Part shown: positions 4,183 to 55,028 of the stretch, one piece after another
Numbering within the stretch: the first letter of the stretch is position 1
How the letters are laid out: each line of letters starts with the position of its first letter
NCBI GenBank assembly: GCA_038065555.1
Contig: JBBTQS010000001.1
Coordinates: forward strand, 64,741-128,740
Source of the DNA: Patescibacteria group bacterium
GTDB taxonomy: Bacteria > Patescibacteriota > Patescibacteriia > Magasanikbacterales > JBBTQS01
Reading direction: 5' to 3'
Length of the DNA: 64,000 nucleotides
The notes under the pieces: generated by a model
The model's database searches: none
What the model was told of the DNA's origin: nothing
Seen by the model: only the letters and a program-made list of their open reading frames with translations
Program-made: the position numbers and the translations under genes

Positions 4183-5127
4183 TTACATCTCGACGAGGGC
4201 GTCGAGGAACCAGTCCACTCCTGCGAGATTGGGTGCAACGAGTCCGCATCCCGATTCTCTGACGAAATCCTTCTCCCATTCGGGGGTGAACTCAGTTGCG
4301 AGATGAATGTACGTCATCTCGAGTTCCATGGGGAGTAGTCCGTCGCAGTGGAGACTGTCACCTGCGACGTAGGCTCTGCGGTCTGTATTGTAGCGGGACT
4401 GCAGATCCATGAGAACGCGGTAGTAGAAGCCGCGCTGTGGGTACGCGTCATATCCTGCTCCAGGGAAGGGGAAGGATACACGCGTTTGCTCCCACATGGG
4501 TTCGAATGCGGCCTGTTCTTCTGCGGACCATGTGTCGCTGCGCATGGTCAGTAGGTGCTTGCCAGCATTGCCTACGACAAAGCCAGGTTCGACCTCATGG
4601 CCTAGGAGGATTTGCATCTTTCCCTCTACAGGCTTTGTGTCCGAGCCTGTCACTATGTGCAGGCCGACGTCTGGATGCGCGCGCCACTTTTGCACGAGTT
4701 CCTTGGCCCCTTCTCGGAAGATGGGCTTGGGATCGTAGCACTTCTTGTGTACGGCGTGCAGCATCTCTTCGCGTTCTCGCTCCGAACCGTAGCGCCTTTC
4801 ACATGCGTCGAGGGTGAGTCCAGCGAGCACGCGCATGTACACGTATGCATCCATGAACGTCGGCGCGACGGTGCGACCACTCAGATCGCGCATGCCGTAC
4901 GCGTTCGAGTTGGCCCTGACTTGGTCGGCTGCGTGTTTGAGCTGTTCCTGAACTACTTGCTCTGGAATGCCTGTTGCTGCTGCGAGCTCTGACGGGTAGC
5001 GCTCGATGAATTTCTCGCCTTCCTCCCAGCCCTTGGTGAGGAAGTTGTCACAGTCGAAGACTATGAGTCTTTTGTTGCTTCGTTCGTTCACGGTTGCTCC
5101 TTTGTGTGCCGTGATTGGCGCGTGCAT
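4183..5127 (-). CDS. HAD-superfamily hydrolase, paralog A
   Basis: DxD motif LIVFDCDNF, HIVTGSDTKP and VAGDSLHCD blocks; the N-terminal 79 aa of the ORF is treated as read-through. Confidence 0.5.
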   Translation of the reverse strand: MHAPITAHKGATVNERSNKRLIVFDCDNFLTKGWEEGEKFIERYPSELAAATGIPEQVVQEQLKHAADQVRANSNAYGMRDLSGRTVAPTFMDAYVYMRVLAGLTLDACERRYGSEREREEMLHAVHKKCYDPKPIFREGAKELVQKWRAHPDVGLHIVTGSDTKPVEGKMQILLGHEVEPGFVVGNAGKHLLTMRSDTWSAEEQAAFEPMWEQTRVSFPFPGAGYDAYPQRGFYYRVLMDLQSRYNTDRRAYVAGDSLHCDGLLPMELEMTYIHLATEFTPEWEKDFVRESGCGLVAPNLAGVDWFLDALVEM

Positions 5128-5152
5128 GCTAGCAAGTGCGGTGGATTTGTCA

Positions 5153-5197
5153 ATGGAAAAAGGAAAGACCAGCACGAGTGTGTTCGTGCTGGTCTTT
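5153..5197 (-). terminator. rho-independent terminator between the two HAD paralogs
   Basis: aaagaccagcacg / cgtgctggtcttt stem followed on the minus strand by CTTTCCTTTTTCC. Confidence 0.45.
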
Positions 5198-5219
5198 GCG
5201 TTGCCACGTGGGCAGCCAC

Positions 5220-6140
5220 TCACCAGGGCGTGTTCAGGATCTGAACCAGCTCGGCGATGGACGTGACCATGTGGGCGTTGGGCCGTGTGGGCAGCCACTG
5301 ATGCAGGTAGGGTGGTGTGTTCTCCGTCTCGAGGCAGATCACGCGAGCGCCCAGGTGTTGCCACATCGCGAGGTCCAGCTCCCAGATGTCGCCGGCGACG
5401 GTGATGCGCTCGATCGGCGTCTTGCGATTGTTGATGAGCTGGCTCACCAGCTTGCGGTACTTGCCTCGACGCAGGTACACCTCTCGTCTATGCATCCCCG
5501 GTACTTGGATCGAGATGGGGAAGTTGGATTCCCACGGGTACTGCGTGCCGTCGATGTCGAGTTCGAACTTGCCAGCTTGTCCCCAGACCAGGTCTGCGTT
5601 GACGAATCCGGAGACCTCTGAGATTCGCCCCGAGACATGTTCTGTCCTCGAGTTGGTCACGATGTGGATCGGACCGTCCTCGCGCAGGTCGTTGATCTCG
5701 CAGATCAGCTCCTCGGCGCCGGGGCGCAGTGGTGGTACGTACTTCAGGTAGTTGGCACCGTAGAGTTCGTTGAGCACTTCTGCGCGCCGCACGGGGTCGT
5801 GGAATCGATTCGCTCGAGTGAAGATCACTTCTGCAATTGATCTGCAGCGCAGATACGGGTCTGCCAGTCCCGGGGCAACGATGTGTCCTTCGAATCGCAT
5901 GCCGTGTTCCTCGGGATTGGCGCGGATGGCGGCTTCGATCTGACCCATGAGGCCACGCGTCCAATCACGAGGCTGGCCGATGTGTTCTGCCAGACTCGTT
6001 GCGTACGCCTCGACATACGGATGTTTGCCTTCCTCGTCGAGCGCTTCGCAGTCTGTGAAGAGTCCATCGAAGTCGAGGATCACCGCTTCGTTCTCCGGAA
6101 CCGTGAACTGGCACTCGAAGGCAGTATCAGATGTTGTCAT
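5220..6140 (-). CDS. HAD-superfamily hydrolase, paralog B
   Basis: ILDFDGLFTD, HIVTNSRTEH, VAGDIWELD; same architecture as paralog A. Confidence 0.55.
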   Translation of the reverse strand: MTTSDTAFECQFTVPENEAVILDFDGLFTDCEALDEEGKHPYVEAYATSLAEHIGQPRDWTRGLMGQIEAAIRANPEEHGMRFEGHIVAPGLADPYLRCRSIAEVIFTRANRFHDPVRRAEVLNELYGANYLKYVPPLRPGAEELICEINDLREDGPIHIVTNSRTEHVSGRISEVSGFVNADLVWGQAGKFELDIDGTQYPWESNFPISIQVPGMHRREVYLRRGKYRKLVSQLINNRKTPIERITVAGDIWELDLAMWQHLGARVICLETENTPPYLHQWLPTRPNAHMVTSIAELVQILNTPW

Positions 6141-8322: not shown

Positions 8323-8348
8323 GACGAGCCTATGGCTGTCGACAAATA

Positions 8349-8357
8349 TGCTATACT
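8349..8357 (+). promoter_or_regulatory. extended -10 promoter (TGCTATACT) for the P-type ATPase
   Basis: TGnTATACT about 30 nt upstream of ATG 8386. Confidence 0.3.
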
Positions 8358-8385
8358 ACCGCCAGTCAAAATACAAGTCCTGCGC

Positions 8386-11004
8386 ATGGCCATTCAACAT
8401 TTTCCTCAGGCGTATTACACCGCAGGTAAGCGGGTTCTGGAAGAACTCCGCACTTCTTTGCATTCTGGAATGACAGCGCGCGAGGCTGTGGAGCGTCAGA
8501 CGCGGTTGGGACCCAATTCTTTGCAGCAGGAACGCGCGCGCATCCGACGCATCCGCATTTTCTTCAGACAATGGAAGAGTCCGTTGTTGTATTTGCTCGC
8601 CATTGCTGGTGCTGTTGCATTTGCACTACACGAATATACAAATGCGATTGTGGTGTTGTTGACTGCGCTCATTAATGCGGCGATCGGGTATGCGCAGGAA
8701 TACAAAGTAGAGAAGTCACTCACCGAACTCTCTGAGTATGTGCCGCTCTACGCACATGTGACGCGCGCGGGCAAAACATTTGAGATTGCAGCAGTCGAAC
8801 TGGTTCCGGGGGACATCTTGCATCTTGCTGAAGGACAGCTGGTTCCTGCTGATGCGCGCATTCTCGTGTGTGATGGGCTCGTTGTTGATGAGCATGTGCT
8901 CACGGGCGAGTCTGAAGCTGTTGGCAAACACACTCGTGTGGTTGCGGCTGAGGCACAAGTAGGAGATCGCAAGAATATGGCGTGGAGCGGAACGTCAGTC
9001 GTGCAAGGGACAGCAACGGCAGTAGTTGTAGCAACAGGTGTCGCGACGCAAATGGGCAGCATTGCGCATTTGTTGGCGAAGACGGACGAACCACTCACAC
9101 CATTGCAACAACAGATCGCAGCGCTTGGTCGTTGGATTGTGATTCTTGTTGGGGTGATGACCGGTTTGATTCTCGTGGTTGGATTGTTACAAGGACGTGT
9201 GTGGAATGAGATTTTTTTGCTCGCAATTGCTGTGGGAGTTGCGGCAATTCCGGAGGGGTTGGTTGTGACACTGACGGTGTTGCTCACTATTGGTATGGAG
9301 CGCATGTTGCGTCAGAGTGCGCTGCCACGACGTCTTATTGCTGCGGAGACATTTGGATCGGTGAGTGTGGTGTGTGCGGACAAAACAGGAACCATCACCG
9401 AAGGGCGCATGCGTGTGGAAGAAGCTCGCACGCGTGCAGAGATCACTGGCAAAGAGTTGGATGAACAGTTGGCGCAGCGTGAGCTGATGCAGGTAATTAC
9501 TATTTTGTGTTCTGAGGCAGTGTGTCTGCCAGGTGCAACCGCTGCTGATCATTCATATCGCGGCGATTCTACAGAGACTGCGCTGTTGCGTCATGCAGTC
9601 GAGTCTGGAATGGATCCGGAGACGATTCTCTCTGGGTTCACACGTATCGCAACGTTGCCATTTGATACGAGCCGCAGGACAATGGCGACTATGCACACCA
9701 CGTCGGACAAGACACAGTTGTTGTGTGTGAAGGGTGCTCCTGAAGTATTGATCCCGCGATCAGATCGCGCGCTGCACGCTGCTGTTGCGCGGCTTGCGGC
9801 TGATGGCTTGCGAGTACTTGCCTGTGCATTTCTCCAGGTGCCTGCAGGAACAGAACTCACAGAATCATTGGTGCGTAGCGCGCGCGTTGTCGGGCTATTT
9901 GGTATTGCTGATCCTGTGCGCGAAGGTGTTGCTGAAGTCATTGCGCGTGCTGAGCACGCAGGTGTTCGGACTGTGATGATCACAGGGGATCATGTTGCAA
10001 CTGCACGTGCTATAGCACAAAAAATTGGATTGCCTACAGGCGATGGAATGGTGTGTACTGGCGCAGAGCTCGATGAGTTCACTGCGAAAGAACGTCACGC
10101 ACTGGTGCAGACGTGTCGCGTGTTCGCACGCGTTGAACCGCGTCACAAGATTCTCATTGTGCAAGAGCTGCAAGAAGCTGGTGAAGTTGTTGCGATGACA
10201 GGTGATGGCGTGAATGACGCGCCAGCGATCAAGGCGGCAGACATTGGTATTGCGCTGGGGTCTGGTGTTCCTGTAGCAAAGGACGTCGCTGATGTTGTAC
10301 TGCTCAATGATTCACTGCAAACCATTATCACTGGTATCGAGCAAGGTCGGTCAATATTCCAGAATATCCGCAAGGTGGTGCTGTATCTCATGAGCAACAT
10401 GTTTACTGCGGTGTTGCTCATTGCGGGGAGTTTGTTCCTTTTCCTTCCGTTGCCGCTGACCGCAGTGCAGATTATTTGGATTAATTTGATGACAGATGTG
10501 TTCCCGGCGATTGCTCTTGCATTTGATCCGAGCGATCCGTCGGTGATGGATCGTCCGCCACGCAAGCGACGCACGCCTATTCTGTCTGTGTCGATGAAGA
10601 CGATGATTTTCCTTGTGAGCATTTTTGCGGATGTGCTGTTGTTGCTGTTCTATGTGAGTATTCAGTCTACGAATTTGTCTGTGCCGTACATGCAGACCAT
10701 GATGTACGCATCGGTCTCACTGTCGAGTGCGTTCTATATTCTCGCAGTGCGACGATTGGAGCAGGCGAAGCCAATGGGATTCTGGCGCAATCGTGTGCTC
10801 ACAGTCGCGATGGTATGTGCGGTTCTTTCGACTGTCGTGTCCATTCATGTTCCATTCTTGCAGCCAATTCTCTCGACGGTTCCGCTTGAAGCGATGGAGT
10901 GGATTGTGGTGCTGATGCTCGCCCTTGTGAAGTACGTGCTCATGCGCGTGGTACAATATGGTTTTCACCTTTATGGCCGTCGACAACTACATTCAACTCA
11001 ATGA
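8386..11004 (+). CDS. P-type cation-transporting ATPase (P2-type, Ca2+/Mg2+-like)
   Basis: DKTGTITEG phosphorylation motif, MTGDGVNDAPA hinge, about 10 TM segments; start at ATG 8386 inferred from the conserved N-terminal spacing (ORF track starts at 8332). Confidence 0.9.
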   Translation: MAIQHFPQAYYTAGKRVLEELRTSLHSGMTAREAVERQTRLGPNSLQQERARIRRIRIFFRQWKSPLLYLLAIAGAVAFALHEYTNAIVVLLTALINAAIGYAQEYKVEKSLTELSEYVPLYAHVTRAGKTFEIAAVELVPGDILHLAEGQLVPADARILVCDGLVVDEHVLTGESEAVGKHTRVVAAEAQVGDRKNMAWSGTSVVQGTATAVVVATGVATQMGSIAHLLAKTDEPLTPLQQQIAALGRWIVILVGVMTGLILVVGLLQGRVWNEIFLLAIAVGVAAIPEGLVVTLTVLLTIGMERMLRQSALPRRLIAAETFGSVSVVCADKTGTITEGRMRVEEARTRAEITGKELDEQLAQRELMQVITILCSEAVCLPGATAADHSYRGDSTETALLRHAVESGMDPETILSGFTRIATLPFDTSRRTMATMHTTSDKTQLLCVKGAPEVLIPRSDRALHAAVARLAADGLRVLACAFLQVPAGTELTESLVRSARVVGLFGIADPVREGVAEVIARAEHAGVRTVMITGDHVATARAIAQKIGLPTGDGMVCTGAELDEFTAKERHALVQTCRVFARVEPRHKILIVQELQEAGEVVAMTGDGVNDAPAIKAADIGIALGSGVPVAKDVADVVLLNDSLQTIITGIEQGRSIFQNIRKVVLYLMSNMFTAVLLIAGSLFLFLPLPLTAVQIIWINLMTDVFPAIALAFDPSDPSVMDRPPRKRRTPILSVSMKTMIFLVSIFADVLLLLFYVSIQSTNLSVPYMQTMMYASVSLSSAFYILAVRRLEQAKPMGFWRNRVLTVAMVCAVLSTVVSIHVPFLQPILSTVPLEAMEWIVVLMLALVKYVLMRVVQYGFHLYGRRQLHSTQ

Positions 11005-18836: not shown

Positions 18837-18907
18837 TCCGGGATCGTCTAATGGTAGGACATCGCCCTTTGGAGGCGAGTATCTTGGTTCGAATCCAAGT
18901 CCCGGAG
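18837..18907 (+). tRNA. tRNA-Gln (anticodon TTG), CCA not encoded
   Basis: TCCGGGA..TCGCCCTTTGGAGGCGA..GGTTCGAATCCAAG TCCCGGA G; U1:A72 as in bacterial tRNA-Gln. Confidence 0.85.
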
Positions 18908-18947
18908 CACATTCGAGATAAGCTTGAGTCTGAAACACAAAATTTCT

Positions 18948-19493
18948 ATGAAAATAGTTGTTGGATCAGCAAGCAAGCGAAAAATTAGCATTGTTGAGAA
19001 AATTGCTCAGCAAATATTCAAGGACGCTGTAATTGATGTGGTTGGGTACGCTGCAAAGTCTGGCGTGCCAGATACTCCGTATGGTAGGGAGACTTTCGAA
19101 GGTGCAAAGAATAGAGTGCTAGACGCTCAGATCAAAATGTTGGGTGCTGATTGTTATGTAGGCTTGGAAAGCGGCTTGGTAGAACGGTATACACACGTGT
19201 TTGAAGAAGCTTGGTGTGTACTCTTGTTACAAGGTAGAGAGTATTACGGGTATTCGAGTGGTTTGAAGGTTCCGGATTGTATACTTAAGAAAATGGATGA
19301 ACTAGGCAAGCCGCACTCGGAGGTAATGAGATTGATTGAAGAGCAGCACGATAAAACATCAAATGATACGTGGGGTACGTACTCAGGCGGTCTTATTGTT
19401 AGAGAAGTTAGCCTGGGGGAAGCTGTACGCAATGCGTTTATTCAGGGCGTTGAATCCGAGAATTCATTGTTTTGTGAAGTATCTAAAACTTAG
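18948..19493 (+). CDS. inosine/xanthosine triphosphatase (YjjX/Maf-Ham1-like non-canonical NTPase)
   Basis: MKIVVGSASKRKI, SGVPDTPYGRETFEGAKNRVLDA; in the low-GC islet. Confidence 0.55.
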   Translation: MKIVVGSASKRKISIVEKIAQQIFKDAVIDVVGYAAKSGVPDTPYGRETFEGAKNRVLDAQIKMLGADCYVGLESGLVERYTHVFEEAWCVLLLQGREYYGYSSGLKVPDCILKKMDELGKPHSEVMRLIEEQHDKTSNDTWGTYSGGLIVREVSLGEAVRNAFIQGVESENSLFCEVSKT

Positions 19494-19514
19494 AGATGTT
19501 GATAGGGGGTGATT

Positions 19515-19523
19515 TGGTACAAT
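19515..19523 (+). promoter_or_regulatory. extended -10 box TGGTACAAT upstream of the ASCH gene
   Basis: TGnTACAAT about 24 nt before ATG 19547. Confidence 0.3.
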
Positions 19524-19546
19524 CAAATCGTAGACCAAATCGATAT

Positions 19547-19873
19547 ATGAAAACACTAAAATTCAGTGACACTCTCGTCCCTCTCGTTCTCTCAGGAGCA
19601 AAAGACTCAACCTGGAGACTTTTTGACGATAAGGATTTGCGGAAAGGAGATGAACTCTCACTCGTCAACAAAGACACAGGGGAGCAATTCGCAAAGGCGC
19701 ATATTGTTTTTGTGCAAGAAAAGCAGCTCAACAAACTTGATGACACTGATCAAGACGGCCACGAGCTATATGAAAGTGAGGAGAAGATGCTCGAGGATTT
19801 TCGGAAGTATTATGGTGATCGCGTCACACTTGAAAGTATGGTGAAGGTCATCAAATTCAAGCTCGCTGAGTAA
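19547..19873 (+). CDS. ASCH domain protein
   Basis: MKTLKFSDTLVPLVLSGAKDSTWRL ASCH beta-barrel start. Confidence 0.5.
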   Translation: MKTLKFSDTLVPLVLSGAKDSTWRLFDDKDLRKGDELSLVNKDTGEQFAKAHIVFVQEKQLNKLDDTDQDGHELYESEEKMLEDFRKYYGDRVTLESMVKVIKFKLAE

Positions 19874-19879
19874 CAAACT

Positions 19880-20239
19880 ATGAAATCATACACAACCATT
19901 AGTGCCTATCTCAAAGGCGCGCCCAAGTATGCGCAACCCAAGCTCCAAGAAATGAGAGCACTGTGTCAGGAACATGTTCCCGATGCAGAAGAAGTCATCC
20001 GCTACGGCATGCCCACCATCCAACTTCGGGGCAAGAATTTCGTGCACTTCGCCGCAATGAAAGGCCATCTCGGATTCTATCCAACACCTTCGGGCGTCAC
20101 AGCATTCGAAGAGCAACTCAAGAAGCAGGAGATCAGCTACTCGAAGGGGTGTATCCGATTCGCATATGACAAGCCGCTTCCCGTGGCGTTTATCAAAAAG
20201 ATTATTATCTTCAGGTTAAAGGAAGAACGGAGCCGCTAG
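19880..20239 (+). CDS. DUF1801/YdhG-family protein
   Basis: YdhG-like block RYGMPTIQLRGKNFVHFAAMKGHLGFYP. Confidence 0.55.
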   Translation: MKSYTTISAYLKGAPKYAQPKLQEMRALCQEHVPDAEEVIRYGMPTIQLRGKNFVHFAAMKGHLGFYPTPSGVTAFEEQLKKQEISYSKGCIRFAYDKPLPVAFIKKIIIFRLKEERSR

Positions 20240-20374: not shown

Positions 20375-21670
20375 TTACGCGTTCTTCTTGGCTCGAGAGG
20401 TCTCCTTGTGCCCATCGACAAGTTTCTGGAACTCGTCGATGGGGAAGTGGATACCGTGGCGACCGCAGAATTCTGAGAGGAGATCTTCTGGGATCCCCAG
20501 CTCAGATTTCAAGGTGAAGGCATGGGTGGCGCTGATCTCCTGTGCCGCAGCGATCTTGTCGAGGTGTTTCTTGCTGCGTTGCAGCACACGCACGAAGCTG
20601 TCGCGTTCCGATTGGATCCAGCCGTTGACAGCTGATTCGTGACGGAGCGTGAGTTCGCGATTGTCGATTGCGACGCAGAGCGAATGCACCCAGCCTGTGA
20701 GAGCCGTGAGCTCGACTCCGTGGAGTTGTGCTCCGATCATCGTTCGTCTGAGAGCTCTGCGAAGCAGATACCCCTCCCGAACGTTGCTTGGAACCACCCC
20801 TTCCCGGATCATCAGGATTGCCGTCTTCAGATGATCGAGGATGATTCGGCTCCACCTCGTGTCACCAACGCTCTCCTGGATGAGTCGGAAGGAGGTGGAG
20901 TACTGATCGATTTCGTGGATCGACGCGCGATCCTGCAGGATCATCGAGAATCGTTCCATCCCCGCGCCCGTGTCTACGCACTTCATGGGGAGATTGGTGA
21001 TAGCACCGTTCTCGTCCTTGAAGTATTGCATGAAGACGCCAGCGTTCCAGATCTCGATGTGTCGACCGGGAACGAGCACATCATCCGTTTCTTTCTCGGC
21101 GAAGGATTCGCCTCGATCGAAGAAGACTTCGGTGCACGGACCGCACGGACCGCTCGTTCCGGCGGGTCCCCAGAAGTTGTCCTCCGGAGGGCGGCCGATG
21201 ATGTGGTCGCGAGGGAGGAAGCGTTCCCAGATGCGTGCGGACTCTTCGTCGCTGGGCACACCAGGGAGGCTGTCGTCGGCATTGAACACGGTCGCGTACA
21301 AGCGATCCGCAGGAATGCCGAACTCTCCAGTGATGAGCTCGAATGCGAGTTCGATCGCTCGCTCCTTGAAGTAGTCACCGAATGACCACGAACCCATCAT
21401 TCGGAAACTCGTACCATGGTAGGAGTCTCCGACACTCTCGAAGTCCACGAAGCGGATGCAATCCTGGACGTTGGTGAGGCGTGGGTAGGGTGGTGTGGCC
21501 TGCCCTGTGAAGTAGGGCTTCATAGGGGCCATGCCGGAGTTGATGAACATCAGGGTAGGATCGTCCTTCGGCATGATGCCAGAGGGCGATATATACCGGT
21601 GTTCGCGATTAAGGAAATGCTCCAGGAAGGTCTGGCGCACCTCCTCGGCCGTTTTGTATGGTAATTTCAA
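20375..21670 (-). CDS. alaS: alanine--tRNA ligase N-terminal fragment (aminoacylation and tRNA-recognition domains only; no editing or C-Ala domain)
   Basis: AlaRS signatures TAEEVRQTFLEHF, DPTLMFINSGM, SFRMMGSWSFGDYFK, FWGPAGTSGPCGPCTEVFFD, EIWNAGVFMQYF, VDTGAGMERF, GVVPSNVREGYLLRRALRR; start chosen at TTG 21670 with a GAGGAGG RBS (ORF track extends to 21736). Confidence 0.8.
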   Translation of the reverse strand: MKLPYKTAEEVRQTFLEHFLNREHRYISPSGIMPKDDPTLMFINSGMAPMKPYFTGQATPPYPRLTNVQDCIRFVDFESVGDSYHGTSFRMMGSWSFGDYFKERAIELAFELITGEFGIPADRLYATVFNADDSLPGVPSDEESARIWERFLPRDHIIGRPPEDNFWGPAGTSGPCGPCTEVFFDRGESFAEKETDDVLVPGRHIEIWNAGVFMQYFKDENGAITNLPMKCVDTGAGMERFSMILQDRASIHEIDQYSTSFRLIQESVGDTRWSRIILDHLKTAILMIREGVVPSNVREGYLLRRALRRTMIGAQLHGVELTALTGWVHSLCVAIDNRELTLRHESAVNGWIQSERDSFVRVLQRSKKHLDKIAAAQEISATHAFTLKSELGIPEDLLSEFCGRHGIHFPIDEFQKLVDGHKETSRAKKNA

Positions 21671-21743
21671 AGAAGCCTCCTCTTTGAGGGGTTGAAGAGC
21701 GTGAGGAACGATATAGTATTTTTTGTTTTTTGGCAAGAGGTTG

Positions 21744-21772
21744 TTGACGTTGTTACTCTTCTGCGCTAGATT
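21744..21772 (+). promoter_or_regulatory. sigma70-like promoter TTGACG-17-TAGATT for the AKR-rSAM-alaS2 operon
   Basis: -35/-10 pair with 17 nt spacer in the AT-rich divergent intergenic region; AGGAGG RBS before ATG 21816. Confidence 0.4.
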
Positions 21773-21815
21773 TTATTGGGTTCGTTCGTTAAAAATACAA
21801 GATTTAGGAGGGGGT

Positions 21816-22556
21816 ATGGAATGGTTTGAAAGGCTCTACTTTGGCACGTGGCAGCTGGGTGGGGGTCAGTTTAGAGCGTTGTCGGAGTATCAGAAGGAGA
21901 GACTCCTGAGTGCTGCAATCATTGCGGGTATCTGTCGCTTTGACACCGCTGCTGTGTATGGAGGAGGGGCCGTGGAGGAACTCCTTGGTCGCCATCTGCA
22001 ACAGCAAGCGGTGATTGTGACTAAGATTCCTGCAATTAGAAAGCCAAATCCGGAAAAGCAGGAGCCCATTAACGAGTTCTACCCGACCGATCACATGCGT
22101 CGGTGTGTCATGAATTCGTTGGATCGACTGAGGAGGGCGCAAGTAGACACCATCTTGTTGCATAATTGGTCGCCATCATGGGCGGTCGGTGCACAAGATG
22201 TGTTGGATTGCCTGAACAGCATGAAGCAGGAAGGCCTCACACGGAGAATTGGCATTTCGTTGCCCAATGACTTTGGATTCCAATCGGGCGCGCGCCTCTT
22301 TCCGTGGATGGATGTGGTAGAGATGCCATATAACCCGGAACAGGCATGGGCACGAAAGCTACTTCCTGCGATGCAAGGATGTGGTGTAGAAGTCTTGCTG
22401 AGAAGTCTGTTTGGGCAAGGGCGCTTTCTTACGACTGACACCGCTGAATCGTTGATCGCGAATGCAGGTGAACTTGGAACGTCTGTGGTCATCGGTATGA
22501 CCACAGAGGAGCAGATCAAACGAAACATCAACTGTCTCAAAAGAGGTGCGCAATGA
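21816..22556 (+). CDS. aldo/keto reductase
   Basis: AKR N-terminus (LYFGTWQLGGG...FDTAAVYGGG); stop overlaps the rSAM start (ATGA). Confidence 0.7.
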   Translation: MEWFERLYFGTWQLGGGQFRALSEYQKERLLSAAIIAGICRFDTAAVYGGGAVEELLGRHLQQQAVIVTKIPAIRKPNPEKQEPINEFYPTDHMRRCVMNSLDRLRRAQVDTILLHNWSPSWAVGAQDVLDCLNSMKQEGLTRRIGISLPNDFGFQSGARLFPWMDVVEMPYNPEQAWARKLLPAMQGCGVEVLLRSLFGQGRFLTTDTAESLIANAGELGTSVVIGMTTEEQIKRNINCLKRGAQ

Positions 22557-23764
22557 ACTATTTCGACGCTGCAAACACAGAAACATTCGTCACTGTGCCT
22601 GGAATGACGACTGGTCGAGAATTCGCACTGCGGGAATACTCGTATGGAGTGCTGGTACCTGACAAGAACCATCCGCTCTCCTGTGTGAGTGTTTCGAACA
22701 GCTCGCTCAGTATAGATCTCTGGGTCGGTTGTGCGTGGCAGTGTCGCTATTGCCATGTGCAGGGTACGAACCAAGACCTGGCTGAGCAAGGAACAATGCC
22801 TCGTAGACCCCGTCTACGCACTGCATTCACGATCGGGCAGATCGTCGATGCGTTGGTGGAGCATCCGTTCTTCGTGGCGGATGTCTCTGTCATCAGTATC
22901 GGAACCGCCAGTACTGAACCGTTCGCACCGGCGATTGTAGACAGTACATTCGACATCATGAACGAGTTCGTGCGACGTGGACTGCGCAATCCATTCTGGA
23001 TCGTGACCAAAGGCGGGATTCCGAAGGGGAGAAAGGTGGATTTCGCCCGCATCGTAAGTGCATCACGCGGACTCATGATCTCACTCTGTTGGGCTGGTAA
23101 CCCAAAGGAGATCGAGCCGATGCGCAATAACCGCTTCCTCAACGTTGAGGAAGCAAAGGAGGCTGGTGCGACAATCGCCTGGTACCTCCGGCCAATCGTG
23201 CCGGAGTGGTCTGGGAGTTCGGAACACATTGACATGATGATGCTGTGGGTCAAACAACACTACAGCGGCATCATTGATATGATCGTTCCGGGCGGACTTC
23301 GGTGGACTGAGGGTATCGAGAATGGCCTGGTGGAGATTCACAAACTCGCCATGCCAGACATTTCTCGTGGAGATAACGAGAAATCACTGCCTCAGGAGCT
23401 GGTGGATTCCATCTTCGCACTGAGTGGTCAGTACTTCCCGGGCGTCCCCGTGTACCTCAAGTCTTCCTGTGCGCTCACACATATGCTCAAGATTCCGAGC
23501 ATTACATCAGTGCACGCGTTCGCGAGAGCTGAGTGTGAAGCATCGCGATGTCCAGCCGAACAGCGCAGGATCTGCGCAAAGGGTGCTGCCTACGATATGA
23601 CGGTTGAGAAAGCTCAGGACATTCTCCGTCGTCTCGGTGTACCTGCTCGTGTGCTGGGGTGGGATGGTACGGGTGGTCTCATCACATCCCCGGCACTGAG
23701 CGAGTTCGCGTACGCTATCAGGCAGACGATCTTCAAAAGCTTGGCTGAAGGAGGTGCCGCATGA
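22553..23764 (+). CDS. radical SAM protein (SPL/COG1533-like)
   Basis: CxxxCxxC cluster GCAWQCRYCHV at residues 60-67; 4-nt ATGA overlaps at both ends. Confidence 0.7.
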   Translation: MNYFDAANTETFVTVPGMTTGREFALREYSYGVLVPDKNHPLSCVSVSNSSLSIDLWVGCAWQCRYCHVQGTNQDLAEQGTMPRRPRLRTAFTIGQIVDALVEHPFFVADVSVISIGTASTEPFAPAIVDSTFDIMNEFVRRGLRNPFWIVTKGGIPKGRKVDFARIVSASRGLMISLCWAGNPKEIEPMRNNRFLNVEEAKEAGATIAWYLRPIVPEWSGSSEHIDMMMLWVKQHYSGIIDMIVPGGLRWTEGIENGLVEIHKLAMPDISRGDNEKSLPQELVDSIFALSGQYFPGVPVYLKSSCALTHMLKIPSITSVHAFARAECEASRCPAEQRRICAKGAAYDMTVEKAQDILRRLGVPARVLGWDGTGGLITSPALSEFAYAIRQTIFKSLAEGGAA

Positions 23765-24885
23765 TCAACCGTGAGCAGATCAAGCGCTTTTTCGAACATC
23801 ACGGCTTCGTGTGGCGAGAAGGTGCTTCGATCACGAGCAGCAACTATAAATTGCTGTTCAACATTTCGGGCGGTGTGGTGTATGAGAGGATTATCTCGGG
23901 CAGAGAACGACCCGAAGTATCCAGAGTTGCATCCGTGCAAACCTGTCTAAGAACAGATGGGTGGAATCGGATCGGTCATTCTGGAAAGCATCACCTCGCC
24001 TTTGAAATGCTCGGTCATTTCTCTTTCTACGAAGGCAATGAAGCCGATGTGAAAGAGAGGATGATCGGAAGTGCGTGGCGATATCTGACAGAATGTCTAG
24101 GTATCAACCAAGACACACTGTTCGCAACAGTGCATCCGCAAGACAGTACGTCGCAACGGATTTGGAGTAATTTGGGGGTAGAGACAAGTGAAAACGCTTG
24201 TAATACCACCTATACTCCATGCAAAAACCGATGTGGTGTGCGAACAGAAATCGTCTGGCGAAATCCAACTACAGGGAACATCGTGGAGCTCTGGAACTTG
24301 GTTTTCACTGAGTTCCAGGGTCAAACGCTCTTCGAATTTCCCTTGGACAGGATAGCTGCCGACTCTGGCGCGAGTATCGATCGGCTCGTTACTGCCGTTG
24401 AAGGTAAGTCGAGCGATTACGATAACTCAAATTGGGTCGACATCATCGGCTCTATCGAGGCGCAGTCGAATGCTCCGGACCGGATATTGGTGTGTCGACT
24501 GGCAGATATGGGTAAGGCGTCGGTACTTCTCGTGGAGCAAGGCCTTCGGCCGGGGAACAAGGCTGCGGAGTATGTGCTTCGGAGGATCATCCGAGAAGCA
24601 TATCTTCTTTGCAAGCAGGTACAGATTCCCTTCGAGGTATTTGTCAAACTTGCGAGCAGTCGCTGGTGTCCAACCCCAGCAATGTCAGAGGTTTTTGTGC
24701 AGGAAGCAACTAGATTCGATTCTGCACTGCGGCGCGGCATGGCAGAATACCGAAAAACAGTTCTCCGTGCACAAGGACCTTTGTCTCACGAAACCATCAA
24801 GCAACTCTCGGCAACGTTTGGGCTTCCGGAAGCACTCATTGTAGTGGAGGAGTCCAAGCGTGCTATACGAGGTGACCATGAGTAG
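23761..24885 (+). CDS. divergent AlaRS catalytic-domain paralog (374 aa)
   Basis: collinear with AlaRS motifs but drifted: EQIKRFFEHHGF, KHHLAFEMLGHFSFYEG, PCKNRCGVRTEIVW, ELWNLVFTEFQ, EYVLRRIIREA. Confidence 0.65.
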   Translation: MINREQIKRFFEHHGFVWREGASITSSNYKLLFNISGGVVYERIISGRERPEVSRVASVQTCLRTDGWNRIGHSGKHHLAFEMLGHFSFYEGNEADVKERMIGSAWRYLTECLGINQDTLFATVHPQDSTSQRIWSNLGVETSENACNTTYTPCKNRCGVRTEIVWRNPTTGNIVELWNLVFTEFQGQTLFEFPLDRIAADSGASIDRLVTAVEGKSSDYDNSNWVDIIGSIEAQSNAPDRILVCRLADMGKASVLLVEQGLRPGNKAAEYVLRRIIREAYLLCKQVQIPFEVFVKLASSRWCPTPAMSEVFVQEATRFDSALRRGMAEYRKTVLRAQGPLSHETIKQLSATFGLPEALIVVEESKRAIRGDHE

Positions 24886-25633
24886 TATTGCTCATGAAAT
24901 AACCCGTGTTTTGCAGCCCCTCGCAGGCTTGAACGCGGTGTTGCATGTTGGCCTGGATCGGAACGTATCACATGGTAGGGTTGATCTCTTAGCAGGTTGT
25001 GTTGACGGCGATATCAAACGGTACGCAATCGATATAATTTGTCTGCTAAAGAGCTGGGACCCATCCGGAGAGTTTTCTGTCTGCGATGACAGTGTACGGT
25101 TTGATACATCGGCTGGGACAGGTGGGGTCGCGGTGTGCGATCCAATTGCCCTTGTTGAAGGTATCAGCGGCTGGATCGAAGGAAGAATGCTCAGTGGGCA
25201 AAGACGTTCGTGGGCCGTCGGGTATTGGTTACCTGAAGCATTGTGCGGGGACCTGGCTACAGCCAGTGTGCTTCATGATGCTACGGGTATAGCAGATCGG
25301 GTTTGTCAACTCGTATCACCATATCCAGAGAAGCTCTCGAATAGTATTGTTCAGTGGTGTTCTGAAGAGATCAGGTTGAAGTTAGTAACACTTCGTTCAC
25401 TGTCACAAGCAGTAGCGTTGGTGGAACACCGGCTTTGCCTGGCGGACATTGCTGCGGCACTCGTGAGGTTGGCATTCGCTCGGGGACGACGCTACCTGCG
25501 TGGATTTCGGTCTCTCGAACAACAAGTTGTGTTCCTGTCACCAGCCGATCGGGCAGTCTATGATCTGGCATCTGAGCTCTTGCTCGGATCGACGGCAGAA
25601 TCGACGATTGAACGGGTCAGGAGCGTGATTTAG
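24860..25633 (+). CDS. hypothetical protein (last gene of the operon)
   Basis: overlaps the preceding gene by 26 nt; no clear family. Confidence 0.4.
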   Translation: MLYEVTMSSIAHEITRVLQPLAGLNAVLHVGLDRNVSHGRVDLLAGCVDGDIKRYAIDIICLLKSWDPSGEFSVCDDSVRFDTSAGTGGVAVCDPIALVEGISGWIEGRMLSGQRRSWAVGYWLPEALCGDLATASVLHDATGIADRVCQLVSPYPEKLSNSIVQWCSEEIRLKLVTLRSLSQAVALVEHRLCLADIAAALVRLAFARGRRYLRGFRSLEQQVVFLSPADRAVYDLASELLLGSTAESTIERVRSVI

Positions 25634-25663
25634 AACTGGAGTATGTGAACACATGCTCCAGTT

Positions 25664-26269
25664 TTATTTTAGGAGTGTTTTTCCGTTCGCATCAATAATG
25701 ATCGCTTCTGAATTTCGTATACGATCAATAACCACATTGTGTTTTAGTTCAAATGCGCGAGCAGCGTCCTCAAGTGCGGGGGTGTAATGTGGAAGCGGTG
25801 TGTTTGGGATGATACAAAGCCCTGTAAAGTCAGTAAGGTTCATCTCGATGGGGTCTGAGAGTATTTCACCGGCAACTGCAATCGATGGTCCGAGGATGAT
25901 ACTTCCAGCACTTACACCTATATACATTCCACCACGATCTAGAAGTGATACGATCGATGTGCGGAAATTTGATGACCGTGCAAAAGCGAGTAGTCGGTAG
26001 GTATTTCCACCGCTTACATAAATAACATCGTAGTTTGTGAGGTCTGCTACTGGTTCGGATGCAAGATCGACAAAATCAACAGTACAAAATTTGAGCGATT
26101 GAAATTGTGACTTTGCTCGCTCAGAGTATTTACCATGGTCTGGCCCTTCTGCAGTTGTTATGATTGCAACAGAGGGGGTTTGATGGTTGGAAAACGTGTG
26201 TTGAACCGCAAAAAAAGTATGACCCTGCGTCAGTCCTGTCGAAGTGAGTATGATCTTTCCGTGGTTCAT
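25664..26269 (-). CDS. peptidase S51 (dipeptidase E/cyanophycinase-like)
   Basis: VIYVSGGNTYRLL and IGVSAGSII serine-nucleophile block. Confidence 0.6.
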   Translation of the reverse strand: MNHGKIILTSTGLTQGHTFFAVQHTFSNHQTPSVAIITTAEGPDHGKYSERAKSQFQSLKFCTVDFVDLASEPVADLTNYDVIYVSGGNTYRLLAFARSSNFRTSIVSLLDRGGMYIGVSAGSIILGPSIAVAGEILSDPIEMNLTDFTGLCIIPNTPLPHYTPALEDAARAFELKHNVVIDRIRNSEAIIIDANGKTLLK

Positions 26270-41390: not shown

Positions 41391-42641
41391 TTACTGACTG
41401 AACCAGCGATCTGCCGCGTCTTCGATCGCGAGGACGCAATCGTTGGTGTTCTCTCCCTGCGCCCAGTGCATCTTGTTCCTGTTGCGTCCCAATGTCTCCT
41501 CGGGCCAGATTTGATGTACGACCGATTGGTCAGCCTTGCGTCGCGGAATTGCTGATGCAATGGCGTCGCGCAATTCGTTGTAGTTCTTCGCGATGCGAAT
41601 GCAGTCGTCTTCAGGGAAGAAGTTCCACAGGAGGAATGGGCTGTCGACTTCTTGTGTGAACGCAGTCATACCGCATCCTGGCGCGTAGTAGGAGAGAGCT
41701 TTTTTGCCCAGTGCTGCTGCGAGCAGGAGGACTGAAGATGTTGAACTGATCACCAGATCTGCTGCAAGCACTGCGTCCACAATCGTTGCGTTGAGCAGGT
41801 GGGGGTTCGCGGGTTTGCGAGCTGCGCCACCATAGGCAGTCTCCTTGCTCACCCTGCGCTGCTCTTCTTTCAGGATGTCTCGATGAAGTGTGGTGATGTC
41901 TTGCAGAACCGCTACGCCGTGCGTTGCGACGGATTGCAGAGATAGAACATCGGTCCAGAGTACGAGTTCTCGTTCGTTCATTCTCGGATGAGGGAGGATC
42001 GCGAGTACTCGCCGAATGGGATCGTCAGGCGTCACGACGTGGATCGAACGTAGTGCTGTGGTGACGTCCTGGAGAGGGCGAGCAGCCTCAGACTGTTGCG
42101 CGACGAAGAGGACAACGAAGTCATCGACGTTGATGCGCGTTTCGCTCGGTGATCGCAGTGCGCGCCGTCGTGCCGTACATTCTTCCATTGTCAATCGCAC
42201 GGCCGAGTCGAGTCGCGGCAGACCTACCTTGTAGCTGAGATGATTGTTCCTCACCACTCGTTCGTCGATGCACAGGAGTGCAACACACGAGTGTTCGAGA
42301 CTTTGCATCACCTTGGTGTACGACACCTTTCGCGCATCACTGAGGATGACGAAGTGTTTGATGTGTTCCTGCAACTGTGGCAACAGCTGCATGCCGCCTT
42401 TGGGGCATGGGCTGATGACTACTTCAGGAATGTTGCCCTGCTTGAATCGACTTGTGATCTCTTCCGCGGAATTCGCAATGTGCGCGTACGCGGGGACGAG
42501 ATCCTTGTTTGTGAGGCTTCCTCCAGCCTCTACAATGAAGGTGACTTCATGGAATCGTGCGAGCAGTGCTGCTCGCAGTGGCTCCAAGTCCGCCAGATCT
42601 GTGCGAGTCTTGCACAGCATCAGGAAATGTCGTGTGGTCAC
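41391..42641 (-). CDS. hypothetical protein, possibly capsule/glycosyltransferase-like
   Basis: C-terminal DLVISSTSSVLLLAAALGKKALSYY resembles glycosyltransferase C-terminal folds; weak. Confidence 0.4.
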   Translation of the reverse strand: MTTRHFLMLCKTRTDLADLEPLRAALLARFHEVTFIVEAGGSLTNKDLVPAYAHIANSAEEITSRFKQGNIPEVVISPCPKGGMQLLPQLQEHIKHFVILSDARKVSYTKVMQSLEHSCVALLCIDERVVRNNHLSYKVGLPRLDSAVRLTMEECTARRRALRSPSETRINVDDFVVLFVAQQSEAARPLQDVTTALRSIHVVTPDDPIRRVLAILPHPRMNERELVLWTDVLSLQSVATHGVAVLQDITTLHRDILKEEQRRVSKETAYGGAARKPANPHLLNATIVDAVLAADLVISSTSSVLLLAAALGKKALSYYAPGCGMTAFTQEVDSPFLLWNFFPEDDCIRIAKNYNELRDAIASAIPRRKADQSVVHQIWPEETLGRNRNKMHWAQGENTNDCVLAIEDAADRWFSQ

Positions 42642-54971: not shown

Positions 54972-55028
54972 AGGGGTGGGACAGGGTTGTAGGTATACGG
55001 TATACTACCTACTGTATCTTTGCAGCCT

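Follow-up and report, generated by a model that had tools for sequence, protein, structure and literature searches.

We report a conserved, co-transcribed and uncharacterised unit of six genes built around two paralogs of the catalytic domain of alanyl-tRNA synthetase (AlaRS). It lies at positions 20375-26269 of a 64-kb stretch of a Patescibacteria genome (GenBank contig JBBTQS010000001.1; the whole stretch is called the window here), recovered from Hainich groundwater 0.1-um metagenomes. The two paralogs, AlaRS-1 and AlaRS-2, are accompanied by an aldo/keto reductase (AKR), a radical S-adenosylmethionine enzyme (rSAM) resembling spore photoproduct lyase (SPL), a protein with the predicted fold of the nucleotidyltransferase ANT(4') and a peptidase of family S51. 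The six genes stay together across rearranged loci of many Patescibacteria, and in other lineages the AlaRS genes give way to other amino-acid-activating enzymes around the same core. A non-translational role in aminoacylation, as first proposed for this locus from its sequence, is the most coherent reading. Tentatively, and at somewhat less than an even chance, we read the six genes as a compact gene set for the synthesis of an alanylated small molecule.

Layout and conservation of the six genes

The features of the module are as follows.

20375-21736 (open reading frame; start probably 21670), minus strand: AlaRS-1; PF01411, E 2e-101
21671-21815: intergenic region between the divergent AlaRS-1 and AKR genes, with a promoter-like site for each transcription unit
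21816-22556, plus strand: AKR, 246 aa; PF00248, E 8e-29
22553-23764, plus strand: SPL-like rSAM, 403 aa; CX3CX2C motif, no Pfam match
23761-24885, plus strand: AlaRS-2, 374 aa; PF01411, E 1e-42
24878-25633 (open reading frame from 24860), plus strand: ANT(4')-like protein, 251 aa; predicted fold, no family match
25664-26269, minus strand: S51 peptidase (PepE-like), 201 aa, cytoplasmic; PF03575, E 1.6e-26

All open reading frames (ORFs) named in the original prediction exist in the window as it described them and are intact. That prediction set out a four-gene operon with a divergent AlaRS gene; this core arrangement is conserved, but the unit comprises six genes rather than five, the sixth being the S51 peptidase gene, which lies within the coordinates first given and was not discussed there. 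The sequence confirms both ATGA stop/start overlaps that it reported (22553-22556 and 23761-23764), and a Shine-Dalgarno-like GGAGG/GAGGTG stands just upstream of each one. The most likely start of AlaRS-1 is the TTG at 21670, giving 431 aa; it stands 5 nt after AAGAGGAGG (Shine-Dalgarno GAGGAGG), gene callers give 430-431 aa and the orthologues agree. The 145-bp intergenic region of the prediction results from this start. For the last plus-strand gene the ATG at 24878 is the more likely start because its homologues are also 251 aa long, and the overlap with AlaRS-2 then shrinks from the proposed 26 nt to 8 nt.

The proposed promoter TTGACG-17-TAGATT is found at 21744-21772. Promoter-like matches in the region are no more numerous than expected by chance (6 versus 4.8 +/- 2.2 in shuffles), but the TTGAC box is invariant across seven aligned orthologous intergenic regions, which supports a real promoter; a GGCAA box is invariant as well. 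The seven regions are those of the window and six related loci, among which are two near-identical pairs. On the minus strand a promoter-like TTGCCA-17-TATCGT runs from 21736 to 21708, with its upstream hexamer inside the intergenic region. The region (21671-21815) matches no Rfam family, and neither a riboswitch nor a T-box nor another regulatory RNA was found in the window or in eight related loci. At one locus on a 394-kb contig of the same organism (L001:6615-7976; related loci are cited by such numbers) the stored gene calls give two plus-strand ORFs where AlaRS-1 lies. This is a gene-calling artefact, and the minus-strand ORF there is intact and identical to that of the window.

The six genes co-occur in Parcubacteria/Paceibacteria-type genomes (Nomura-, Uhr-, Buchanan- and Yonathbacteria) and in Saccharibacteria, so the arrangement is far from peculiar to one genome. 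In most Patescibacteria loci AlaRS-1 adjoins the other module genes, often with overlapping codons, and its placement takes at least four forms: divergent upstream of the AKR gene, in an operon with it downstream of the S51 gene, directly after the ANT-like gene, or upstream on the same strand. It is missing near the module at L019, at L128 and in the gut genomes. Because the six genes remain together despite rearrangement, and because neighbour-joining trees of AlaRS-1 and AlaRS-2 mirror each other in topology, AlaRS-1 is a part of the module and not a mere neighbour. Conservation through these rearrangements also rules out chance adjacency.

Module proteins and the exchange of the synthetase partner

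AlaRS-1 consists of the aminoacylation and tRNA-recognition domains only, without an editing or a C-Ala domain. It covers positions 1-433 of the 552 in the PF01411 profile, reaches 347 bits against a cut-off of 457 for TIGR00344 and matches the A. aeolicus enzyme (1riq) at E 5e-71. AlaRS-2 is more diverged (151 bits against the same cut-off, with the profile match ending at 401 of 552), and its helical tRNA-recognition domain is complete, with the motifs PGNK...YVLR..IRE and TxGxP. Neither paralog matches the tRNA_SAD editing domain (PF07973), no ORF with an editing domain occurs anywhere in the window, and a second alaS was found neither there nor in the fetched loci. At three loci AlaRS-1 is spread over two ORFs (L011:6586-7877, L099:5791-7082 and L103:5365-6767; about 340 + 90 aa, or 368 + 101 aa), through either a frameshift or an assembly error.

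Residues are numbered here on E. coli AlaRS, a reference anchored on literature motifs. The class II aminoacylation core (R69, N212, D235 and G237) is present in both paralogs of the window. All eight members of the AlaRS-1 family retain R69, W170, E209, N212, V214, D235 and G237; N303 is found in seven of the eight, and D400 is replaced by S, T or E. In the AlaRS-2 family R69, E209, N212, G237 and the motif-3 Arg occur in 23/23 sequences, V214 and D235 in 22/23 and N303 in 19/23, with W170 replaced by F, T or H and D400 by S, A or Q. Position 400 is Asp in 24 of 25 canonical AlaRS sequences. Hence the Asn303-Asp400 pair that reads G3:U70 is intact in neither paralog, although the Asn is mostly kept. 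Whether AlaRS-2 retains its binding residues, a check proposed at the outset, thus has a divided answer: those for ATP and alanine and the tRNA-recognition domain are kept, whereas W170 and D400 are lost. The possibility that the two genes are pseudogene fragments or frameshifted remnants is ruled out by the intact ORFs and by catalytic residues conserved across dozens of orthologues.

AlaRS-2 represents a discrete family. Clustering at 90% leaves about 97 close relatives, each 350-390 aa long, and below them a gap separates the family from canonical AlaRS. In an exhaustive profile search the family formed about 30 clusters at 50% identity scoring 522-256 bits, canonical full-length AlaRS reached at most 236 bits, and nothing scored in between. 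In the neighbour-joining tree it sits on a long branch apart from canonical AlaRS.

The AKR and rSAM genes occur together in nearly every locus. The residues of the AKR tetrad (D..Y, K and H) can be read in FDTAAVYG, VTKIP and LLHNW, and the closest solved structures are generic AKRs. The rSAM protein carries the CX3CX2C cluster motif and five additional invariant Cys residues; its fold is closest to SPL, with RlmN third. It matches no Pfam family, among NCBIfam models it scores best with NF038135 (21 bits, where the cut-off is 430), and a sequence search of the PDB returned nothing significant. The likeness to SPL therefore lies in the fold and the cluster motif; the module enzyme differs from SPL in matching no SPL family model, in its extra Cys residues, in not being basic, and in being neither viral nor from a spore-former. 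As neither rSAM nor AlaRS-2 was found on viral contigs, a phage origin was rejected.

The protein first described as an unknown of 257 aa indeed has no family match, but with the start preferred here it is 251 aa long and its predicted structure (pLDDT 86) has an ANT(4')/kanamycin-nucleotidyltransferase-like fold. The top Foldseek matches were ANT(4') (6un8/1kan, E 6e-7) and LinB; the structures 6un8, 1kan and 3jyy matched at E 6e-7 to 6e-5 with a TM-score of about 0.55. As in ANT(4') and LinB, a nucleotidyltransferase (NTase) domain is followed by a HEPN-like helical domain, here a C-terminal DUF4037, the domain type of aminoglycoside nucleotidyltransferases; some homologues match PF13228. 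Unlike those enzymes, with which it shares about 13% identity, it has no resistance context and its GS...DxD motif is degenerate in the window (VGL...RVD), being intact only in orthologues from Firmicutes and from L090 and L092. The ANT-like protein forms a fusion with the AKR in gut Firmicutes and with rSAM at L092 and L146; these two fusions, which are independent, connect the core proteins in function. With a median pI of about 6.3-7.0, the proteins of the module are not basic.

The S51 peptidase scores 93.7 bits against the PF03575 cut-off of 23.9 and misses the PepE equivalog model (59 bits versus 156). Its GVSAG (GxSAG) serine and LPHY histidine align with the Lmo0363 peptidase. It accompanies the Patescibacteria loci that carry AlaRS genes as well as the modules with lysine, aspartate and carrier-protein enzymes described below; in gut modules with AlaRS-2 it is replaced by an S66 peptidase, and at L008 by an M55 DppA-like D-aminopeptidase. 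The gut S66 peptidases match MccF at E 1e-36 to 1e-27 and LD-carboxypeptidases at 1e-17 to 1e-10. Since they are nearer to MccF than to LdcA, a reading in terms of peptidoglycan recycling is weakened.

A search of the wider family with a profile of rSAM, the most conserved gene, found 60 metagenome loci; rSAM identity over the loci compared was 39-77%. AlaRS-2 was the partner in 23 of the 60, a class I lysyl-tRNA synthetase (LysRS) in 17, an aspartyl-tRNA synthetase (AspRS) core in 3 and an amino-acid:carrier-protein ligase in 1. Hence the AlaRS genes, central to the original prediction, are not invariant, and the constant part is rSAM with AKR, usually together with the S51 peptidase and the ANT-like protein. 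The variants are listed below.

Ala-type, Patescibacteria: AlaRS-1 + AKR + rSAM + AlaRS-2 + ANT-like + S51 (the window; with the gut Ala-type, 23/60 loci)
Ala-type, gut Firmicutes: ANT-like-AKR fusion + rSAM + S66 + AlaRS-2 (L009, L018, L020, L022-L024, L028, L139, L145)
S66 + AlaRS-2 pair without the rSAM/AKR core (L010, L025; L021 with a radical SAM remnant)
Lys-type: core + class I LysRS, 17 loci (L095, L104, L112-L116, L119, L120, L136, L137, L141-L144, L147, L148)
Asp-type: core + 304-aa AspRS catalytic core (L111:3921-4835, L117:3366-4280, L118:5865-6779)
Carrier-protein-type: core + carrier protein + SerRS-like amino-acid:carrier-protein ligase + ATP-grasp + S51 + MFS (L090, L091)
No synthetase gene nearby: core alone (L092, L126, L146)

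The LysRS of the Lys-type modules reaches up to 407 bits with TIGR00467 and keeps its anticodon-binding domain. In L113-116 and L119 its ORF overlaps the AKR ORF on the same strand, and the two genes are presumably co-transcribed. Two human-gut contigs, L141 and L142, carry two class I LysRS copies each; one of those in L142 is fused to a calcineurin-like Metallophos phosphoesterase (NF053862, E 2e-12, far under the cut-off). The AspRS core has neither an anticodon-binding nor an insertion domain, an architecture resembling AsnA or GenX, and its gene shares an operon with that of the AKR, the modules being otherwise identical. The carrier-protein-type comes from two cultured Bacillales, Thermoactinomyces sp. 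DSM 45892 (L090) and Priestia megaterium (L091). With its ligase (NF005479, E 4e-20), L-amino-acid-ligase-like ATP-grasp enzymes and a condensation-like protein, it has the gene content of a typical small biosynthetic gene cluster.

Two loci bear on AlaRS-1. At L134 an 895-aa full-length, canonical-like AlaRS lies upstream of AKR-rSAM-AlaRS2 on the same strand with a 23-nt gap, probably in the same operon, which fits a role in supplying Ala-tRNA for the AlaRS-1 position. At L024, a metagenome-assembled genome labelled Muribaculaceae, an AlaRS-1-like gene stands beside the module; Muribaculaceae genomes are expected to have a normal alaS. The stand-alone pair of S66 and AlaRS-2 may represent a cassette of the immunity type.

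When the flanking ORFs were clustered all against all, no further conserved neighbour such as an exporter or a regulator emerged; nothing recurred beside the modules except the alternative synthetase partners. Individual loci show additional genes. At L008 (GCA_054922475.1), from an organism with a larger genome, an ANT(2'')-like 'Aminoglyc_resit' gene (5433-5921) overlaps the AKR start, and NB-ARC/TPR and EAD7 conflict-type genes lie upstream of the module. A 1.34-Mb contig labelled Gammaproteobacteria (L017:6844-7854) has a Patescibacteria-type six-gene module with an S66 gene upstream of AKR, and so both S66 and S51. A RelA/SpoT-HD-TGS protein is encoded upstream of the gut-type module in three loci (L009:2953-4395, L018 and L024), a MazG gene is present at L091, and L090 adjoins a prophage tail/lysis region, a group II intron and a type I restriction-modification system.

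A possible biosynthetic function and its rivals

A constant core with a variable amino-acid-activating partner argues for a division of labour, in which a common acceptor, X, would come from the core and the amino acid from the synthetase paralog. The exchange of partners suggests, too, that the products form a family built on one X, each with its own amino acid. The peptidases point the same way: S51 PepE-like, S66 MccF-like and M55 DppA-like enzymes all cleave next to a free N-terminal amino acid, which fits an aminoacyl-NH-X product. From these observations we infer a chemical route, the nature of X and a biological role. The SPL-like rSAM and an NADPH-dependent AKR would build or remodel X, possibly a nucleoside or an adenylate-like compound, with the radical step creating a carbonyl that the AKR would reduce, and the ANT(4')-like protein may assist as a nucleotide- or substrate-binding partner. 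AlaRS-1 would supply Ala-tRNA(Ala) and may also serve as an inhibitor-insensitive AlaRS copy, as AcmD does in ascamycin biosynthesis. AlaRS-2 would couple alanine to an amine of X, either from Ala-tRNA, like AcmF, or via its own alanyl-adenylate (Ala-AMP), which it may make itself because its activation residues are kept. The S51 peptidase would cleave the amide of aminoacyl-X in the manner of AcmE and MccF, serving either self-protection or maturation.

By analogy, the closest known system is AcmD/AcmF/AcmE of ascamycin biosynthesis, reportedly described in Streptomyces sp. 80H647 by Zheng et al. (ACS Catal 2024). There, the extra AlaRS AcmD produces Ala-tRNA(Ala) and withstands the product better than the housekeeping AlaRS does; AcmF, an AlaRS-like protein of its own clade that is truncated to the aminoacylation and tRNA-recognition domains, takes Ala from Ala-tRNA and attaches it to an adenosine sulfamate occupying the adenylate site; and the hydrolase AcmE removes the alanine (PMC12945691). 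The present module likewise has two AlaRS-derived genes, of which one groups with canonical AlaRS (AlaRS-1, as AcmD) and the other is cut to the same two domains and forms a separate clade (AlaRS-2, as AcmF), the G3:U70-reading Asp being missing in both AcmF and AlaRS-2; this likeness is drawn from the published description of AcmF. Each cluster also has a hydrolase, AcmE corresponding to the S51, S66 or M55 peptidase, whose de-alanylating role in the module would be analogous. However, AcmE is a secreted alpha/beta-hydrolase, and the module has no sulfamate, halogenase or nucleoside-tailoring genes but the SPL-like rSAM, AKR and ANT-like genes instead; no sulfamate-pathway genes were seen near it. 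The hosts differ too, Streptomyces in one case and Patescibacteria and Firmicutes in the other.

Other systems share single elements. MccF, the S66 self-immunity peptidase of microcin C, is the closest relative, together with MccF-like proteins, of the gut-Firmicutes S66 paired with AlaRS-2; it cleaves aminoacyl-nucleotide amides, in which an amide joins the amino acid to an adenylate mimic. The window, in contrast, has S51 and no S66, and no MccA/MccB-type genes. EpmA/GenX with EpmB, which carry out beta-lysylation of elongation factor P (EF-P), combine a truncated aminoacyl-tRNA synthetase (aaRS) paralog with a radical SAM enzyme as the module does, and GluQRS is a truncated paralog that aminoacylates something other than a tRNA 3' end. 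Amino-acid:[carrier-protein] ligases and L-amino-acid ligases (bacilysin BacD, dapdiamide DdaF) have counterparts in the Bacillales module, where such enzymes take the place of the AlaRS-like genes; the window has no carrier protein and no ATP-grasp enzyme, and aminoacylation there would rest on the AlaRS paralogs. Ala-X 'Trojan-horse' dipeptides that are freed by a peptidase follow the same logic as the module.

Several points weigh against the biosynthetic reading. The modules of Patescibacteria and of the gut are not accompanied by an exporter, an unusual trait if the product were a secreted antibiotic. AcmF carries N219Q and D232E and has lost most ATP-site residues, whereas AlaRS-2 keeps N212, D235 and its ATP-site residues; the analogy therefore covers the architecture and not a shared active site. 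The peptidase is shared by modules with differing partners and is missing near the module in L151, L147, L148, L092 and L146, so its role is not fixed. In the window the GS motif of the ANT-like protein is gone, as is the leading Asp of its DxD. AlaRS-1 might double as the housekeeping enzyme, and a nucleoside-like X is only hinted at, by the SPL-, ANT- and MccF-like folds and the occasional MazG or Metallophos neighbours.

Among the alternatives, the one that deserves most attention, although we consider it unlikely, is that the paralogs act independently of tRNA: AlaRS-2, and perhaps AlaRS-1, would form Ala-AMP and hand the alanine straight on to an amine or hydroxyl group on the core product, like AsnA or the amino-acid:carrier-protein ligases, and two ligases would add two residues. 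The intact adenylation residues and the loss of D400, one of the two G3:U70 readers, in both paralogs are consistent with this, as are gut modules with AlaRS-2 alone and variants whose partners are architecturally unable to bind tRNA (the 304-aa AspRS core and the carrier-protein ligase). Yet both paralogs keep the whole helical tRNA-recognition domain, over which AlaRS-1 is very near to canonical AlaRS and which known tRNA-independent paralogs have usually lost, the Lys-type partners retain their anticodon-binding domain, and L134 has a full-length AlaRS. It is improbable that the paralogs serve resistance only, as insensitive replacement targets (like MupM and other resistant aaRS copies) for a synthetase inhibitor made by the rSAM/AKR/peptidase core. 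Extra aaRS copies are classic self-resistance genes in clusters, AcmD is more resistant than the housekeeping AlaRS, and the S66 and AlaRS-2 pairs of L010 and L025 occur without the core, as an immunity cassette would. However, the core is orthologous while the partner switches among Ala, Lys and Asp enzymes of both classes, so that amino-acid specificity must come from the partner; AlaRS-2, long-branched, remodelled (W170 lost) and without an editing domain, is unlike typical resistant copies, and the AspRS-core partner lacks the anticodon domain needed in translation. We give a similarly low probability to a hypermodification in which a nucleobase in tRNA, other RNA or DNA receives an amino acid that is later remodelled. 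The rSAM fold is nearest to SPL, a DNA enzyme, with RlmN third, phage M6 gp53 is an SPL-like radical SAM isomerase of glycine-thymidine adducts and thus acts on amino-acid:nucleobase conjugates (PMC8989533), AlaRS-2 keeps its tRNA-binding domain, NTase and HEPN-like folds are common in RNA biology, and the glutamylation of queuosine by GluQRS is a precedent. A small molecule is indicated instead by the carrier protein, ATP-grasp, condensation-like enzyme and MFS transporter of the Bacillales version and by small aminopeptidase-type hydrolases, which suit small substrates; moreover, no tRNA or RNA gene is conserved in the modules, the proteins are not basic and the module is absent from viral contigs.

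The remaining readings are less credible still. An anti-phage or conflict system that makes a toxic nucleotide or aminoacyl-adenylate analogue on infection, like prokaryotic viperins, is very unlikely: the missing exporter, the sporadic distribution, defence-type neighbours at L008 (NB-ARC/TPR, EAD7) and L090 (type I restriction-modification, prophage) and a Metallophos partner weakly similar to an anti-phage phosphoesterase (E 2e-12) speak for it, but those neighbours are not conserved, no sensor or regulator is recognisable, and none of the six proteins matches a PADLOC defence model at E 0.1 or better, by which a known defence system was rejected. Only a slight chance is left to an ordinary explanation, in which AlaRS-1 is the naturally truncated housekeeping enzyme of a reduced genome, AlaRS-2 a decaying duplicate and their adjacency meaningless. 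A mini-AlaRS without editing or C-Ala domains can function (PMC10036535), the window holds no other alaS and AlaRS-1 is split in L011, L099 and L103. Against this, the catalytic residues of AlaRS-2 are strongly conserved over its roughly 30 clusters at 50% identity and the gene was never found degraded, AlaRS-1 has remained part of the module across at least four rearrangements, in many cases with codon overlaps, an AlaRS-1-like gene also accompanies the module in L024, and both paralogs are without D400. Finally, we hold it barely conceivable that the core makes a non-canonical amino acid that AlaRS-2 loads onto a dedicated tRNA, as in a pyrrolysine-type expansion of the code. The gene set does resemble PylS/PylB/PylC/PylD (aaRS paralog, radical SAM, oxidoreductase), and W170 of the amino-acid pocket is lost in AlaRS-2, but the core is unchanged while the synthetase type varies and a peptidase is usually present. 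A Pyl-like system was rejected since no dedicated or suppressor tRNA occurs in or near any module; the tRNAs found nearby are ordinary ones (Gln, Lys, Arg, Asn and Glu) and are not conserved.

The module as an alanylating biosynthetic unit could be one member of a more far-reaching scheme, which at present is doubtful: a family of clusters in which a constant core is combined with interchangeable aaRS paralogs of both classes, each joining its own amino acid to a common adenosine-like acceptor. Such clusters would yield stable aminoacyl-adenylate mimics, that is, natural aaRS inhibitors. Self-immunity would come from the peptidase, MccF-like or S51, together with the second copy of the synthetase.

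Genomic setting and significance

The locus was first described as lying downstream of a low-GC islet at a tRNA-Gln gene, and both the gene (18837-18908) and the dip in GC to 0.44 at 19000-20000 are real. The accessory origin proposed on that basis needs revising: the GC content of the module (0.49-0.59) is no different from that of its surroundings and base composition gives no sign of foreign DNA, but the sporadic distribution suggests an accessory function. The tRNA-Gln (anticodon TTG) is 1.5 kb beyond the AlaRS-1 end of the module with three small genes between, and in UBA6201 a tRNA-Gln (anticodon CTG; L012:6193-6264) lies about 330 bp past the AlaRS-1 end. This adjacency could reflect conserved synteny or an insertion site. 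The low-GC stretch itself (18924-20239, 0.44) carries NTPase_I-T, ASCH and DUF1801 genes according to the stored Pfam calls for L001. Elsewhere the window has two minus-strand ORFs without a Pfam match (41391-42641, 416 aa, and 4183-5364, 393 aa), a P-type ATPase (8332-11004), an S8 subtilase with FG-GAP repeats (55020-57131) and other ordinary genes such as those for a UDP-glucose dehydrogenase, sugar transferases and a Mur ligase.

The claim that the arrangement had not been described needs to be narrowed. An extra AlaRS combined with a truncated AlaRS-like enzyme and a hydrolase is already known from the ascamycin cluster (PMC12945691), whereas the coupling of such a pair to an SPL-like rSAM, an AKR and an ANT-like protein was not found in the literature searched. 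A literature search returned nothing on AlaRS and Patescibacteria, on AlaRS-like proteins and radical SAM, or on a tRNA synthetase with radical SAM, AKR and a peptidase; nor did it find partner swapping around an rSAM/AKR core, or this core in Patescibacteria or gut Firmicutes.

Few aaRS paralogs have been recruited for non-translational aminoacylation, and each of them (EpmA, GluQRS, the amino-acid:carrier-protein ligases, AcmF and SbzA) has taught new chemistry. A discrete AlaRS-derived family with an intact adenylation site and lineage-swapped partners is a natural experiment in the repurposing of a synthetase scaffold. Its hosts include uncultured gut Firmicutes as well as Patescibacteria, whose genomes are tiny and of whose secondary metabolism very little is known, and the cultured carriers of the carrier-protein-type cluster, Priestia megaterium and Thermoactinomyces sp. 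DSM 45892, make the core chemistry directly testable. If the product is an aminoacyl-adenylate mimic, it would represent a new class of natural aaRS inhibitors with built-in resistance genes. Should the wider scheme of interchangeable synthetases hold true, it would provide a natural 'plug-and-play' route to aaRS inhibitors, and the module would be among the first defined antimetabolite pathways in the Candidate Phyla Radiation (Patescibacteria).

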